A model generated the notes under the pieces. The model was given only the letters and a program-made list of their open reading frames with translations. It was not told where the DNA came from and did not search any database. A stretch of 64,000 nucleotides of DNA from sequence record ON528730; one strand, 5' to 3'. Each line of letters starts with the position of its first letter. Within the stretch, counting starts at the first letter, position 1. Below, piece by piece: positions 3,660-62,906 of the stretch. This DNA comes from Shigella phage ESh20. The translations under genes were made by a program, and so were the position numbers.

Positions 3660-4146
3660 TAAGTTTCATGATTTTAGTGATTCTCTTCTCAGCTTCATCA
3701 TAAGTCTCTTTTGTAAGAAACTTGATTGCTGCAATGTTCGCATTGTAGAAGAGTCGAAGCTGAGAGTCAATCCTTTTTGTCATGACGTCAAACTTATGTT
3801 GTAGGTTAGCTTCGCCATAAACCAAGCCACCTCGCGTATAGTAAGTCTGGATGATGTAGAAGTCAAACTCTTTTTCACCAAAAGATTCAATATCCTTCTT
3901 AATGTACTCAGAAGATGTTTGGTAAGTCATCCAATCACTTTCTTTTGTCACGACTTTACGTCTGGTCTTTCCAGCAACCTTTTTCTTAGTGACGTTATTA
4001 AATTGTTTCTTTCCAATATAATATTGTCCAGTTTTCTTACAGTATACTAAATAGACAAAACCAAAATAGTTAGCGGGGTCAATTTCCCCGCACAGTGAAA
4101 TCCAATGTCCATAAACAGGGCAATTTCCAAATCCTTTAATCTTCAT
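3646..4146 (-). CDS. Putative GIY-YIG family endonuclease
   Basis: N-terminal GFVYLVYCKKTGQYYIGKK resembles the GIY...YIG motif pair. Confidence 0.45.
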   Translation of the reverse strand: MKIKGFGNCPVYGHWISLCGEIDPANYFGFVYLVYCKKTGQYYIGKKQFNNVTKKKVAGKTRRKVVTKESDWMTYQTSSEYIKKDIESFGEKEFDFYIIQTYYTRGGLVYGEANLQHKFDVMTKRIDSQLRLFYNANIAAIKFLTKETYDEAEKRITKIMKLNERV

Positions 4147-5238: not shown

Positions 5239-6099
5239 TTACTCGTCGTCAGTTTCGAAATCATCTTCGTCATCATCATCTGGGTTTGGCAGGTCGTCGT
5301 CATCGTCATCACCACCTTTACCTTCATCACCAGAATCTTTTGCATCTTCTTCAGTGATTTCACCGTTGTCTTCAACACCTGCAAGACCAAGCATTGCCAG
5401 TTCATCTTCATCCAGTTCAGTCTCAGTAGCACCACCAGTACCACCAGTGTAAGGAACCAGAGTATCAATGATAAATTGTTCCTGAATTGGCTTGGTCAGA
5501 ACGTTACCTTCAAATGTGTAGAAGTGAGTCGCCAGAATCACACTACCAAATGAGCCGTTACCAACTGCAATATCTGGATGAATTACATCGTAAGTCTTAT
5601 CATCATCGTGCTTATCAGATTTTGCTGCCTTGATTTTCTTCATAGGCTGCTTAACTGCAACACGCTTACCGTTGATTTCTTCAACCAGCATTACAGGGAA
5701 ACTCTGTTTTGCTGACCACACAGCACCGTCTTTATATGCTGCTGAACGGCTAACCTTCAGGATGTGATAGGTGTCAGCTTCAAACGGAGGCTCACAACCA
5801 AACTTCTCTTCGAAGTCATCTGCATCAACAGCCTCTGTAGTAACTTTATCCCAACCTTCAGGACTCTTTTTAGACTTGGTGAACTCTTTAAAGAGCTTGT
5901 TACCATCTTTTGCCAGAATTGAAACGCTGTAGTTACAATCTTTGCCCGGAAAATGCTTATCCACAGATTTACCCTTTTGAGGACGTGGAATAGTGTTCAG
6001 GTAATAGAACCAAACATCTTTCAGTAGGTAACGCAGAGTCTCACGTTCTTGACCATTGTACTTCTCTACCGGAGCTTTCATTTTAACAACTTTAGACAT
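5239..6099 (-). CDS. Putative single-stranded DNA-binding protein
   Basis: 286 aa in replication module with strongly acidic C-terminal tail DDDDDDLPNPDDDDEDDFETDDE typical of phage SSBs. Confidence 0.4.
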   Translation of the reverse strand: MSKVVKMKAPVEKYNGQERETLRYLLKDVWFYYLNTIPRPQKGKSVDKHFPGKDCNYSVSILAKDGNKLFKEFTKSKKSPEGWDKVTTEAVDADDFEEKFGCEPPFEADTYHILKVSRSAAYKDGAVWSAKQSFPVMLVEEINGKRVAVKQPMKKIKAAKSDKHDDDKTYDVIHPDIAVGNGSFGSVILATHFYTFEGNVLTKPIQEQFIIDTLVPYTGGTGGATETELDEDELAMLGLAGVEDNGEITEEDAKDSGDEGKGGDDDDDDLPNPDDDDEDDFETDDE

Positions 6100-15299: not shown

Positions 15300-15545
15300 A
15301 TGTTAAAATTATTGATACCAGCTTTAGTAGTCCTACTGGTTGGATGTAACCCTTCTTATGAGAATAAGGATGCTTCTTACAGACTTCCTCCAGAAATGCA
15401 AGACTGCAAGATTTATAAACTTAATGGTGATGCCATTAGCAGGGATGTTATTGTAGTTCGCTGCCCAAATTCTCAGACGACAACTTCTTACAAGTATGGG
15501 AAGAATAGTCAGTCACACACCACAGTTTTTGATGGGGGATATTAA
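15300..15545 (+). CDS. Putative small lipoprotein
   Basis: Signal peptide with lipobox MLKLLIPALVVLLVGC. Confidence 0.55.
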   Translation: MLKLLIPALVVLLVGCNPSYENKDASYRLPPEMQDCKIYKLNGDAISRDVIVVRCPNSQTTTSYKYGKNSQSHTTVFDGGY

Positions 15546-16283: not shown

Positions 16284-17380
16284 CAATTCTGTACAAACAA
16301 AATAAAGATGGTTCTTTCAACGTCTGGTCATGTGTTGCTGTAGGTGATAAAGTCGTCACAACTTATGGTAAAGAAAATGGCAAGATGATGTTTGAAGAGT
16401 ACAAAGCAGAGCCAAAGAACATCGGTAAGAAGAATGAGCGTAATGCTGAACAGCAAGCTCTTTTTGAAGTTGCTGCTAAGTACAAGAAGCAGGTTGACCG
16501 TAAAGGGTATGCTTACACAAAATCTGAAGCAGAGAATGTTGAAAAGGTTGGTGTACAGCTTGCTCAGGATGCTTCCAAGATAAGTCACAAGAAGTATCTG
16601 GTATTTCCTGCCGATGCTCAACCTAAACTTGATGGGGTTCGTTGCAGGATTTCAAGAGATGCTGACTCAGAAAGTTTTACAGCATATTCTCGTGAGAACA
16701 CGGTATACAACATTCCTATAGAGTTGATTCCTGATGTTCTTCTTATGCTGAAACTGCACAAAGATGTTGAGGATTTCGACGGGGAGATTTATGCTCATGG
16801 TTGGGACTTGGAAGATATTGTATCTATGATTAAGAATGCTGACAATCCAGACCGTCACCTTCTTAAATTCTACTGGTATGATATCTGTGACAAGACTAAA
16901 TCTTGGCCTGAGCGTCGTGAAGTTATTGATAATTCACCAATCGTTGAACTCGGTGATGCTTGCAGGGTTGTACCTGTTCAGACAATCCGTGTTAACTCTT
17001 GGGAAGAATTTGATAATGCTCATGACAACTGGGTTAAACTCAAGTTTGAAGGGGCAATGTATCGGTCAATCTCACCAGATTCGTTCTATGAGTGTGGTCA
17101 TCGCTCTTACTTCCTGATTAAGCACAAGAAGATGCACACACAGGAATTTAAAGTAACTGGTGTAAAGACTGATAAACGTGGTCATGGTAAGTTCGTTGTA
17201 GAGACTCTTCCTAACGTCTTTGTAGATGTTTCATGGAAAACTGCACACGAGAAGAAAAAGTATCTTGCTGAACATCCTGAAGAGTTTATCGGGAAGCCTT
17301 TAACGGTTCAGTTCCAGAAGATGACTCGTAAGGGTTCTTTACAGTTCCCTGTTGGGCTAGTAATTCGAGATTATGAATAG
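16280..17380 (+). CDS. ATP-dependent DNA ligase
   Basis: Adenylation motif KLDG in PKLDGVRC; size and context. Confidence 0.8.
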   Translation: MTILYKQNKDGSFNVWSCVAVGDKVVTTYGKENGKMMFEEYKAEPKNIGKKNERNAEQQALFEVAAKYKKQVDRKGYAYTKSEAENVEKVGVQLAQDASKISHKKYLVFPADAQPKLDGVRCRISRDADSESFTAYSRENTVYNIPIELIPDVLLMLKLHKDVEDFDGEIYAHGWDLEDIVSMIKNADNPDRHLLKFYWYDICDKTKSWPERREVIDNSPIVELGDACRVVPVQTIRVNSWEEFDNAHDNWVKLKFEGAMYRSISPDSFYECGHRSYFLIKHKKMHTQEFKVTGVKTDKRGHGKFVVETLPNVFVDVSWKTAHEKKKYLAEHPEEFIGKPLTVQFQKMTRKGSLQFPVGLVIRDYE

Positions 17381-17388
17381 AGGTTAGT

Positions 17389-17538
17389 ATGTTTAGTACA
17401 ATTATCCTGTTTGTTTTTGTTGTTTTATCATTATCTTACTTCATAAGTAAACTGTTAAGTATAACATACAAAGCAGCCTTAGCCCTTACTCTGTTATCAT
17501 TTGCAGTGAATGCAGCAGTTAGGATGTATTTAGTATAA
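17389..17538 (+). CDS. Small hydrophobic membrane protein (49 aa), not in ORF track
   Basis: Own translation MFSTIILFVFVVLSLSYFISKLLSITYKAALALTLLSFAVNAAVRMYLV; RBS AGAGG 7 nt upstream. Confidence 0.4.
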   Translation: MFSTIILFVFVVLSLSYFISKLLSITYKAALALTLLSFAVNAAVRMYLV

Positions 17539-17543
17539 AGTTG

Positions 17544-17571
17544 TTGACATGAGTAACCTGACGGGTATACT
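17544..17571 (+). promoter_or_regulatory. Sigma70-like promoter
   Basis: TTGACA (17544-17549), 16-nt spacer, TATACT (17566-17571); followed by inverted repeat CTGACGGGT...ACCCGTCAG and RBS GGAGGT before ATG 17622. Confidence 0.55.
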
Positions 17572-17621
17572 GCCTATATAGAAAATTATATAGGAACCCG
17601 TCAGAAACCTCGGAGGTAGTT

Positions 17622-18002
17622 ATGAAAAAGTTACTTGTTGGTGTTGTTGCTCTTGGTATGAGTTTTAGTGCAGCAGCTATGAAGATGCCTGAAGCAAACT
17701 TTAATGGTGTTGCTTTAGAATCTTGTAAGATTGTACAGAAAATTGCTTCAAATGCTGGAGAGTTGACTAAACCGTTGTCTGCTCAGACTGTTCAAGAAAT
17801 GACTGATAAGATGGTTGACTACAACTACCATTTTATGGGAGATTACTATGACAGATTGGCAGATGAGATGGTTACTCAGAACGTTGACCTTCTTGATAGC
17901 AAAGGTATTGAGACTGTAGAAGATGTGAAAGACAACTTTATGCGTGAGTCTTTCAAAGGTGTTCAATACTTTATTGAAAATCGTCACTGCATGGGTTTAT
18001 AA
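17622..18002 (+). CDS. Secreted/periplasmic hypothetical protein
   Basis: N-terminal signal peptide MKKLLVGVVALGMSFSAAA. Confidence 0.55.
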   Translation: MKKLLVGVVALGMSFSAAAMKMPEANFNGVALESCKIVQKIASNAGELTKPLSAQTVQEMTDKMVDYNYHFMGDYYDRLADEMVTQNVDLLDSKGIETVEDVKDNFMRESFKGVQYFIENRHCMGL

Positions 18003-18004
18003 TC

Positions 18005-18208
18005 ATGAAGAAGAATATCTGTAGAACAGACTATGGTGAAGTGGTCGATGATGACGGAGTAGTTATTTACAGAGTTTGGGCTAATGATTTTGCAACAGTT
18101 GTAGAGTCTTTAGATAACTACATCAATGGGACTCGTGAAAACGTCAGAGCAACTAATCTTGATTCGTTAATAGACACTTCTCGAAAACGGAGAAAGAAAG
18201 ATGAATGA
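18005..18208 (+). CDS. Hypothetical protein (67 aa)
   Basis: ORF track. Confidence 0.45.
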   Translation: MKKNICRTDYGEVVDDDGVVIYRVWANDFATVVESLDNYINGTRENVRATNLDSLIDTSRKRRKKDE

Positions 18209-18500
18209 AGTCTTTGACCCATATGCACCTCAAGATTCTTGGGAGGCTGATAGAGAGGTTGAAATGGAGAGTTATATCTGTCCAATGGATATAGAAGAGA
18301 TGAAAGATTTTGTATCTTTCAGATTCTCTAAAGAGATTGAGAAGCTAAAACTTTCTCAGGCTCAAGTAGCAACTGTTTGTGAAATCTCACAGAGTCGTGT
18401 GTCAAATATCATTAACGACCCTCAAAAGATTTCTTTAGAGTACATGCTTAATGCTTGTACAAAACTTGGTGTAAATTTTAACTTAAGGCTGGCAGATTAA
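18201..18500 (+). CDS. Putative HTH DNA-binding protein
   Basis: Helix-turn-helix-like LSQAQVATVCEISQSRVSNI. Confidence 0.45.
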   Translation: MNEVFDPYAPQDSWEADREVEMESYICPMDIEEMKDFVSFRFSKEIEKLKLSQAQVATVCEISQSRVSNIINDPQKISLEYMLNACTKLGVNFNLRLAD

Positions 18501-18501
18501 T

Positions 18502-18861
18502 ATGAAACGTGAAAATGCAATCTTTAACGATAACTTTGCAATTGGCTTCTATGGTAAACCAACTCCAGCAGAGAAGCTTTATGGTAATGCAATTCTGGAG
18601 ACCTTGAAAGAGGTTTACACAACTGGTGGTATGAAGCATACTGAAGCAAATCGTGTAAGAGGTTATATGGCAATTGGCTCTGCAATCTCTAACATCAAAC
18701 TTGAAACTACAAGTGCTAAAAAGGTGCGAGACCACTTCATCAAAGAGTTGTCAGAGAACCTAGATGGTGTTGATGTTAAGGCTGTCTGGTTAGATGTTGA
18801 TGGTCACAACTACACAACTTTTGTGTTTAAAAATGAGGATATCAAATGTCTCTTCCCTTAA
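18502..18861 (+). CDS. Hypothetical protein (119 aa)
   Basis: ORF track. Confidence 0.5.
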   Translation: MKRENAIFNDNFAIGFYGKPTPAEKLYGNAILETLKEVYTTGGMKHTEANRVRGYMAIGSAISNIKLETTSAKKVRDHFIKELSENLDGVDVKAVWLDVDGHNYTTFVFKNEDIKCLFP

Positions 18862-21586: not shown

Positions 21587-21615
21587 AAGGCTCCCGTAAA
21601 AAGGAGCCTTAGAAT
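21587..21615. terminator. Bidirectional hairpin terminator between convergent genes
   Basis: AAGGCTCC-cgtaaaa-GGAGCCTT flanked by A-run and T-rich tract. Confidence 0.6.
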
Positions 21616-61234: not shown

Positions 61235-61242
61235 AACTATAC

Positions 61243-61267
61243 AGCCCCTTAATTGGGGCTTTTTATT
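61243..61267 (+). terminator. Rho-independent terminator ending the plus-strand block
   Basis: AGCCCC-ttaatt-GGGGCT followed by TTTTTATT. Confidence 0.7.
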
Positions 61268-61269
61268 GA

Positions 61270-62842
61270 GTAAAATTTACGAAATTTATAATTTTTATAA
61301 AATTTGGGATTCACTCCGTTCATCTTGGGTCACCATGATATGTGATAAAATATCTATACCCTTCTAAACACCCTCTCTAAGCATCATCTCTATATAGTAT
61401 TATATAGTATCTATATAGCCTCTTAGTCCCTAAATAGTGCTCTCTATATAGCCCTCTATAAAGCCTTCTAAGCCTCCCATTAATCAACCCTATACAATCA
61501 CCTTCCTAACCTCTTCCTAGCCCCTTAGGAGCCCCTATACTCATCTTAATCTCTAGGTAAACGATAGTACCCTATATAGCAGAATCACTAGGTATTACTA
61601 AGCCTCTATATAGACTGTTATATAACACTAAACAGGTATTCCCTGTAAAGGCTTATCCTACAAGGTCTAACACGGCACTAACAAGGTCTCTTATAAGCCT
61701 GTTAATTCCTGTTTTATATAAGATAGTGTATAGATAGTTATTCAGAATTATAAAATTTTTATAAAATAGACTAGGTAGTGTTTATTTAGGGGTCTTTGGA
61801 GAATCTGAAAAATATCTACTTAGGATGTATATCTGCTTGGTAGCCCTTAACAGCCCTGTAACATCCCCTTTGCAAAATCTTAAAATATCATTAACAATCT
61901 CTTAACAACTCTCCCAAGCTCTTAACATCTCTTCAAAGTTCTTAACAGTCTCTTAACAGAACTAACAAGAGCTTAACAAGTCTGTAACATTGCTTACAAG
62001 AGTCTAACAAGTTGCTTATAAGTTGCTAAATAGTTAAATCTTAAGAGTTATTTTGTTAAGATAATTAACAAGATGCTAACAAGTTCTAAACCTTTTTAAC
62101 AAGCTATTAACATGGTCACAGTGGTTGTTTACAAACACAACTTCTCTTGGTCTATAGCTCCCTATGCTTCTTAGTGATTCTCTATAAAGCCCTCTTAAAA
62201 GCTCTGTATAGCTCTGTATAGCCTCTTCTAAGGTTCTCCCTAGTAACTACACCCCAACTACCTGTATAGCTCTTTATAGGGCTTTCTAGGGGCTTATACA
62301 GGGACTTCAAAGAGTCTAACAAGCTTTTAACATACCACTAACAAGGATTTAACAAGGGGCTAACAAGTCTCTAATAAGCATAACTATGTAGCATTTGTTA
62401 AGATTTTGTTAAGAGAATGTAAAGGGGGCTAACTTTTACGTTACTTTTACGTTACTTTTACGTTACTTTTACGTTACTTTTACGTTACTTTTAAGCTCTT
62501 TTTAGTTCCCCATAACACATTACTAAGTAACTAGCAAGCCCCCTGTTTAACTATTCACAAGATTCTATCCAGCTTATAAGCTTATACCCTTATAAGATTC
62601 TTTTAAGGCTCTGGAAAGCTCTATAAAGGGCTTTTAAGAGTAGGTTAATATGATTGCTTAAGATGAGATGATAAGCCCGTATAGAGCGTTATAGAGCGTT
62701 TTAGGGATTGCCCTTCCCTTTCGGGTTATGGGCTTATATTTAAGTTGATTTGATAAGAGGATATAGAGTAAGCTATAGAGTTATTGTTCTAAATGTATGA
62801 GATAGATTCTATCGAATCAATGGTAAGATTCTAGGAAGACGT
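61270..62842. repeat. Repeat-dense non-coding region (candidate origin / packaging region)
   Basis: About 1.6 kb without long ORFs; recurring CTATATAG, CTCTATAAAGCC, TTAACA and CTAACAAG motifs, AT-rich near-palindromes, tandem 11-mers. Confidence 0.6.
62432..62493. repeat. Tandem repeat, 11-bp unit ACTTTTACGTT x about 5.6
   Basis: Read directly: aacttttacgttacttttacgttacttttacgttacttttacgttacttttaa. Confidence 0.85.
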
Positions 62843-62864
62843 AAAAAAGCCCCATCTAAGGGGC
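62843..62864 (-). terminator. Rho-independent terminator (minus strand)
   Basis: Minus strand GCCCC-ttagat-GGGGC followed by TTTTTT, downstream of gene ending at 62907. Confidence 0.65.
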
Positions 62865-62906
62865 TGTAAAGGTGTCTGGGGCTATTTGCCCCGTTGCGGC
62901 GACTTG

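Follow-up and report, generated by a model that had tools for sequence, protein, structure and literature searches.

The gene for a predicted exported protein of Shigella phage ESh20 (sequence record ON528730) is preceded by a conserved host-type promoter that is straddled by a covarying RNA hairpin, a well-supported variation on the promoter-inside-hairpin theme. In the model that we favor, the promoter is embedded in a hairpin that can form only in RNA reading through from the upstream genes and that is probably an RNase III-like processing or stability site, with an AT-rich element of the leader constituting a separate module; as a whole, this model is tentative, with a probability of about 0.42.

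The analyzed stretch of 64,000 nucleotides (hereinafter, the window) is a Mooglevirus genome (Ounavirinae, Felix O1-like myoviruses), and its positions 17300-18700 show 98.8% identity to the Shigella phages Sf16, Sf14 and Sf15 of the same genus. The site lies in a plus-strand block of genes that runs from DNA polymerase through ligase and dihydrofolate reductase to thymidylate synthase and ends at a bidirectional terminator (21587-21610). No plus-strand intrinsic terminators were predicted between 13.8 and 21.6 kb by the terminator scan, so that read-through from upstream is plausible. The bidirectional intrinsic terminator itself (AAGGCTCC...GGAGCCTT), located between thymidylate synthase and the convergent holin and tail-fiber block, matches the Felix O1 terminators t79/t80. 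Between the ligase gene and the promoter, there is a 49-aa ORF with two hydrophobic segments, the stop codon of which is 5 nt 5' of the -35 hexamer; wV8 contains a similar ORF in the equivalent location, and in Sf16 the slot is unannotated. In other lineages, this slot is occupied by a different small ORF, of 20 aa (L164), 54 aa (L318) or about 64 aa (L036/L037), the stop codon of the latter overlapping the -35 hexamer.

Downstream of the promoter, the order of genes is conserved, with the gene for an XRE-type regulator always found in the third position of the operon (Table 1). The exported-protein gene belongs to the replication and nucleotide-metabolism transcription unit, and its ortholog in Felix O1, ORF87, reaches maximal expression at 25 min, in the 'middle' class, along with ligase, polymerase and td (PMC3185647); the assignment of this gene to the early region in the initial annotation was, accordingly, loose. 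Literature searches found no transcript-end or functional data on this locus, and no experimental start site, RNA-end or RNase III data on any Ounavirinae phage.

Table 1. Features of the promoter-hairpin locus and its surroundings in the window, and variants of the outer arms across lineages
Feature	Coordinates	Strand	Remarks
Lipoprotein, 81 aa	15300..15545	+	Lipobox LVGC (residues 13-16), Cys16, Asn at +2
Small hydrophobic ORF, 49 aa	17389..17538	+	From the ORF list; phrog_22006, E 2e-7
-35 hexamer TTGACA	17544..17549	+	Unchanged in nine orthologous regions
Outer stem, 5' arm CTGACGGGT	17558..17566	+	In the promoter spacer, overlapping the first T of -10
-10 hexamer TATACT	17566..17571	+	Unchanged in nine orthologous regions
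Inner AT-rich palindrome CCTATATA-GAAAAT-TATATAGG	17573..17594	+	Sequence-conserved leader element
Outer stem, 3' arm ACCCGTCAG	17596..17604	+	About +19 to +27 of the predicted transcript
Shine-Dalgarno GGAGG	17612..17616	+	5 nt before ATG (17622)
Exported-protein gene, 126 aa (phrog_4332)	17622..18002	+	Sf16 gp71, Michonne gp48, Felix O1 ORF87
ORF, 67 aa (phrog_4473)	18005..18208	+	Always second in the operon, after the exported-protein gene
XRE/Cro-type HTH regulator, 99 aa	18201..18500	+	Pfam HTH_3, E 2.9e-8
ORF, 119 aa (phrog_4116)	18502..18861	+	Next conserved operon member after the XRE regulator
Arm variant 1: CTGACGGGT/ACCCGTCAG			Window, Michonne, L036, L043
Arm variant 2: TAGTGGGT/ACCCACTA plus U.G pair			L164
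Arm variant 3: TCCGGTAGTT/AACTACCGGA			PC79-13, L040
Arm variant 4: AAACATAGCAAGT/ACTTGCTATGTTT			Sf13
Arm variant 5: AACCTAGTAGGT/ACTTACTAGGTT, internal G.U			L037
Arm variant 6: TTGGTGAGTA/TACTCACCAG			wV8, Felix O1

The promoter is of the sigma-70 type (TTGACA-16-TATACT, 17544-17571), with 11 of the 12 hexamer positions matching the consensus and a 16-nt spacer. The near-consensus promoter, the 9-bp inverted repeat, the strong ribosome-binding site and the classical signal peptide that were described in the initial annotation were all recovered. From the sequence of the window alone, neither the promoter nor the repeat is remarkable: the pattern TTGACA-N15-18-TATAMT occurs once in the 64 kb compared to 0.13 expected occurrences, with at least one found in 12% of the shuffled sequences, and inverted repeats of this kind (9 nt or longer, arms no more than 45 nt apart) number 53 in the window. 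It is the comparison with the sequences of relatives that lifts both features above chance. In the alignment of nine divergent orthologous regions, the hexamers (columns 1-6 and 23-28) are invariant whereas the spacer is variable. Transcription is predicted to start around position 17578, about 7 nt 3' of the -10 hexamer.

The arms of the repeat are complementary in all 9 positions and are 29 nt apart, and this is the only promoter in the 64-kb window with a repeat that extends from the spacer to the leader. We collected upstream regions from GenBank phages, IMG/VR, one metagenome scan and public assemblies, and aligned nine distinct regions with the same layout as in the window (hereinafter, type A). 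L164 is the one genuinely new variant to come from the metagenome scan; little was gained from two loosely patterned viral scans, with mostly unrelated promoters among the matches listed. The nine type A regions contain five different arm sequences and a sixth is shared by wV8 and Felix O1; in all of these, the arms pair. Changes on both sides were detected in 7 of the 9 outer pairs, and neither the observed covariation score nor the percentage of paired positions was reached in any of 500 shuffles; as a control, the partners were slid by 1 to 3 columns, upon which the covariation signal vanished. The cells that were scored as unpaired come from PC79-13 and L040, both of which pair perfectly one column out of register. 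Between Sf13 and L037, there are two compensatory double changes and one replacement of an A-U pair by G.U, and between the window and L164, three compensatory double changes and one replacement of C-G by U.G.

The same outer stem was recovered by RNAalifold and is part of the minimum-energy fold of every lineage that was folded. The stem consists of 9 to 15 bp and 5 to 8 bp separated by a 6-by-1 loop, for a hairpin of 17 to 21 bp, and the read-through RNA of the window folds with an energy of -30 kcal/mol (z-score of -4.0). Three internal G.U pairs (in L037 and L318) and no internal A.C pairs were observed, although these numbers are very small. A search of Rfam with positions 17200-17800 produced no match at the gathering score, only sub-threshold chance matches. 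Given that the pairing of the arms is kept through replacement of their sequences while the hexamers remain invariant, the comparison points to the outer repeat being the base of a plus-strand RNA hairpin of 17 to 21 bp.

In most variants, the first T of the -10 hexamer is the last base of the 5' arm, in wV8 and Felix O1 the arm extends over TA, and the remainder of the hexamer forms the internal loop of the folded RNA; the AT-rich element forms the apical stem, where the predicted start falls. The arms occupy exactly the positions that are left free by the promoter function. With the 5' arm in the spacer and the start in the apical stem, RNA initiated at this promoter cannot form either stem, and only RNA reading through from the ligase side can contain the hairpin. 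The RNA that starts at the predicted +1 is predicted to be less structured than shuffled sequences (z-score of +1.7). The location of the repeat over the -10 element and the leader, as initially annotated, stands as far as the position is concerned, but the 5' arm lies upstream of the -10 element and is absent from the promoter's own leader. In Sf13 and PC79-13, the entire intergenic region is only 85 nt long, and lack of room is the probable reason for the overlap between the stem and the promoter.

A second module, which we denote type B, has the promoter TTGACA-17-TATTTT directly 5' of the exported-protein gene and was identified in Felixounavirus, SUSP1/2, Moogle, Sf17 and the distant lineage L318. 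Here, a 13-bp repeat (AAATAAGCTATAA/TTATAGCTTATTT) brackets the -35 hexamer, and the hairpin consists of 13 and 5 bp; in L318, the repeat (AAAGGCUGUAAAA/UUUUAUGGCCUAU) differs by one compensatory change and two G.U changes. Because the Moogle- and Sf17-type phages have replaced the hairpin with this other module, the exact structure is dispensable for the expression of the exported protein. In Felix O1, both modules are present in tandem at a distance of 190 nt, with TATGCT in type A, and in wV8, the two promoters are separated by a cassette of two genes with GGT-rich repeats on its flanks. In these two phages, the type A promoter and its hairpin are found 190 to 400 nt from the next start codon, and the hairpin lacks the AT-rich core and has no nearby ribosome-binding site. 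In both, the AT-rich element is retained in the leader of the exported-protein gene; the outer hairpin therefore belongs to the promoter and the AT-rich element to the leader.

The GGT-rich repeats are quasi-periodic and map to positions 740-1000 and 2130-2400 of the wV8 locus (L005) and to positions 3700-3830, on the minus strand, of the Felix O1 locus (L322). Together with 58-bp direct repeats annotated as DR_4, they flank the cassette in wV8, Sf17, Moogle and vB_SflM_004; the two genes of this cassette produced no Pfam match. Approximately 100 nt immediately 5' of the exported-protein gene are almost identical across genera in which the proteins themselves share no more than 33% identity, a pattern suggestive of recent horizontal spread.

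Nested inside the outer repeat is a perfect palindrome (CCTATATA, 17573-17580, and TATATAGG, 17587-17594) that had been missed in the initial annotation. In this inner element, the sequence is kept, with no covariation and with some of the pairs broken. The motif (A/T)TATA(C/G)AAAAT..T.ATATA(G/A) is conserved 3' of TATAC in both promoter types as well as in L318, and is unique in the window, being neither repeated nor enriched. The recognition helix of the XRE regulator (SQ[SA][RQ]VSNI) is kept across the lineages alongside the inner element. The inner element is a candidate operator for the XRE regulator encoded in the operon, or else may be an element of the leader or the initially transcribed region; the tie to the regulator is circumstantial.

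We propose that the host sigma-70 promoter behind the ligase gene and the small membrane ORF drives a conserved block of genes, of which the first would encode a Sec-exported, probably disulfide-bonded three-helix protein and which includes the XRE-type regulator. The hairpin would mark the RNA that reads through from the upstream genes and would function as a site of endonucleolytic processing or stabilization, RNase III-like, as between the genes of phage T7. Such processing could uncouple the ligase message from the downstream operon, and the 5' end left by the cleavage would lie near the position at which the promoter itself starts transcription. The RNase III-like role is our best guess and is based on analogy: the hairpin amounts to about two turns of dsRNA with an internal loop, the shape of an RNase III site.

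The intercistronic RNase III sites of phage T7 (R1.1, R3.8, R6.5 and others) are located downstream of promoters and are carried by all transcripts. The structure described here resembles these sites in that it is a hairpin of about 20 bp with an asymmetric internal loop, located between genes of a phage polycistronic unit and beside a promoter, but differs in being predicted on the read-through RNA only. In the retroregulation of phage lambda through sib, the site is present on one of two transcript forms, which differ at the 3' end. Similarly, the hairpin in our case is predicted to be carried by only one of two transcript forms, although these would differ at the 5' end.

The known cases of a promoter located in the 5' strand of an inhibitory RNA hairpin are T4 genes e, soc, 49, I-TevI and segB and the mobE gene of Aeh1 (PMC3014915, PMC2988022). 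As in T4 genes e and I-TevI, the proximal promoter is inside the 5' half of the hairpin, such that the proximal transcripts lack the 5' arm and the read-through RNA folds, and this shared layout is an argument for translational masking of the type characterized in T4. There are additional observations that are compatible with masking: the minimum-energy fold of the read-through RNA of the window reaches codons 3-6 and encloses the ribosome-binding site in a multiloop; the Shine-Dalgarno region of both PC79-13 and L040 is matched by a complementary sequence in the 5' part of the spacer, with the two varying in step (CTTCTCC/GGAGAAG versus TCTTTCC/GGAAAGA); and only 2 nt separate the stem from the Shine-Dalgarno sequence in Sf13 and L037. 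However, the T4 hairpins sequester the Shine-Dalgarno sequence or the AUG whereas this hairpin ends 2 to 12 nt upstream of the Shine-Dalgarno sequence (in the window, the outer 3' arm ends at position -18, 5' of it). Furthermore, partition-function accessibilities calculated for eight lineages reveal no consistent difference in the unpaired probability of the Shine-Dalgarno sequence and AUG between the read-through RNA and the promoter-started RNA, with the site being more open in the read-through RNA in two of the eight, and we accordingly rejected consistent masking of the ribosome-binding site. In wV8 and Felix O1, unlike in T4, the hairpin is hundreds of nucleotides from any gene, indicating that the stem goes with the promoter and not with the ribosome-binding site. 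The promoters also differ in kind, being of the host sigma-70 type here and late or middle promoters in T4. We consider masking unlikely. The closest published anomaly is seg43(25) of Aeromonas phage 25, where a stable hairpin is located just 5' of an unsequestered ribosome-binding site (PMC2988022). An unrelated viral contig (L234, IMGVR_UViG_3300021400_003551; minus strand, around position 5953) carries the same promoter as here (AGTTGTTGACA-N17-TATACT), with a spacer (CTCTTCCTCCTGAT) that is complementary to the downstream AGGAGG ribosome-binding site, and looks like a textbook masking hairpin of the T4 gene e type.

The other alternatives to an RNase III-like site place the function of the repeat in DNA or in termination. 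A hairpin or cruciform in DNA, or in a transiently single-stranded plus strand, could expose or hide the -10 hexamer, making the promoter activity dependent on supercoiling or replication. In agreement with this possibility, in every variant the 5' arm stops at the edge of the -10 hexamer or slightly inside it, with the rest of the hexamer in a loop; the perfect AT-rich palindrome at the core would nucleate extrusion; G.T is the mildest mismatch in DNA; and the preference for G.U over A.C involves three internal pairs only. Nevertheless, cruciform extrusion is disfavored by the 6-by-1 internal loop and by the 29-nt distance that separates the arms, the plus-strand internal G.U pairs of L037 and L318 would correspond to A.C mismatches in the second arm of a cruciform, and the hairpin of the other promoter type is placed differently, around the -35 hexamer, so that we regard a DNA-level structure as quite improbable. 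In a related and even less probable version, the promoter would be structure-gated, with a strand-specific hairpin holding the -10 hexamer in an internal loop (in the sister module, the -35 hexamer in the terminal loop) and with the supercoiling, replication or single-strandedness of the phage DNA acting as the switch for initiation by the host RNA polymerase. A terminator or attenuator, halting transcription that arrives from the replication genes immediately ahead of the operon's promoter, would fit a stable hairpin located about 20 nt past the stop codon of the upstream gene and the U-rich stretch that comes after the 3' arm, or overlaps it, in Sf13, L037 and the type B hairpin. The terminator scan did not call it, though, no U-tract follows the stem in the window, PC79-13, L164 or wV8, and the loops are 21 to 29 nt long; we consider such a role to be about as improbable as a cruciform and rejected an intrinsic terminator, the scan being silent and the U-tract missing in most variants. 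Finally, the arms could be the two half-sites of an operator at which a dimeric DNA-binding protein, of the phage or of the host, represses the promoter, given that a repeat over the spacer, the -10 hexamer and the early transcribed region occupies the classical position of a repressor site and that the gene for the XRE-type regulator is located 600 nt downstream. This is the least credible of the readings: six unrelated arm sequences contrast with the essentially constant recognition helix of the regulator, on which grounds we rejected the outer repeat as an operator; the centers of the half-sites are 38 bp apart; changes of the G.U type make no sense for a symmetric DNA site; and the arm motif does not recur, with both of its exact copies in the window found at the promoter. 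The earlier suggestion of dedicated regulation is supported at the level of the locus but is not supported for the repeat as a protein operator, the arms having been replaced wholesale with their pairing, including G.U, retained.

The family of the exported protein includes 258 phage records, essentially all from Ounavirinae (Mooglevirus, Suspvirus and Felixounavirus), with identities from 100% down to 31%. The predicted signal peptide (approximately residues 1-19) consists of MKK, a hydrophobic core of 12 to 14 residues (KD 2.5-2.8), the sequence of which is free to vary among orthologs, and a site of the A-x-A type. In a rule-based check, which was passed by six orthologs, a cleavage-type site was detected after residue 18-20 in these six and in two distant relatives, and the six orthologs contained no further hydrophobic segments. 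Cysteines C35 and C123 are invariant, which is compatible with a periplasmic disulfide between the two. AlphaFold2 confidently predicts a three-helix bundle (pLDDT 87.8; helices 30-44, 54-85 and 93-120) with a disordered N-terminus.

Searches of Pfam, NCBIfam and PDB sequences and fold searches identified no informative relative of this protein in either fold or sequence. The role of a host-envelope effector or superinfection-exclusion factor that was put forward in the initial annotation is possible but unsupported. The sole Pfam match, to PRA-PH (E 0.012), was below the threshold and was treated as noise; NCBIfam yielded nothing; and every match among the PDB sequences was above E 0.02. Apart from the family itself, a profile search of 1.84 billion proteins retrieved only two distant relatives and one LRR repeat protein from a plant, a spurious match. 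The protein of L318 is a distant relative (E 2e-6). Another, of 130 aa and with a signal peptide and both cysteines, is encoded at positions 3001-3393 of L320/L321, where the gene adjoins a resolvase gene and the Ounavirinae gene order of the other loci is absent. Spackle (gp61.3) and the RI antiholin of phage T4 are small, helical, exported early proteins. The protein described here is similar to these in being a small, all-helical protein of a virulent myovirus with an N-terminal export signal and pre-late expression, but the sequence searches (Pfam, NCBIfam and PDB sequences) and the fold searches detected no homology to Spackle or RI, so that a Spackle-like or RI-like function is possible but unsupported.

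In the same replication gene block, the product of the gene at 15300-15545, which had been proposed to be a small lipoprotein, indeed contains the lipobox LVGC with Cys16. It belongs to the phage family phrog_902, and its homologs have precomputed matches to PF16225/DUF4884.

We also examined a potential link between the promoter site and a distant region of the genome. Five CTATATAG boxes are located at positions 61390-61613, within a 1.65-kb non-coding region, and their clustering is real. A single copy is found elsewhere in the 64 kb, which equals the chance expectation, and the exact box is absent from the Felixounavirus leaders; the link is thus statistically weak and no more than a lead. 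The non-coding region (61240-62900) lacks ORFs over 1.65 kb and is packed with short repeats, including many iteron-like CTTAACA and CTAACAAG units at 61840-62380 and a perfect 11-bp tandem repeat (ACTTTTACGTT, 5.6 copies) at 62432-62493. It is present, mostly unannotated, in 255 Ounavirinae records with 77 to 94% identity; its possible roles include those of an origin, terminus or regulatory region.

Felix O1-like phages encode no RNA polymerase of their own and no recognized sigma or promoter-specificity factor (PMC3185647). If the promoter were structure-gated after all, a phage lacking its own polymerase and sigma factor could time its middle genes in this manner. Under the preferred model of a read-through-only hairpin that is probably processed, the locus offers a testable handle on the timing of transcription in Felix O1-like phages: it contains one of the few consensus host promoters of the genome, overlapped by a covarying RNA structure and adjoined by a conserved regulator gene, and the hairpin separates read-through RNA from RNA started locally. 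Several Ounavirinae phages are used in typing and biocontrol of Salmonella, E. coli and Shigella, and if the exported protein is directed at the envelope, with a role in exclusion or lysis timing, it would be of practical relevance for such phages. The element is of a familiar general type and changes no paradigm, but it represents a modest and real addition to an almost unstudied phage regulatory system.
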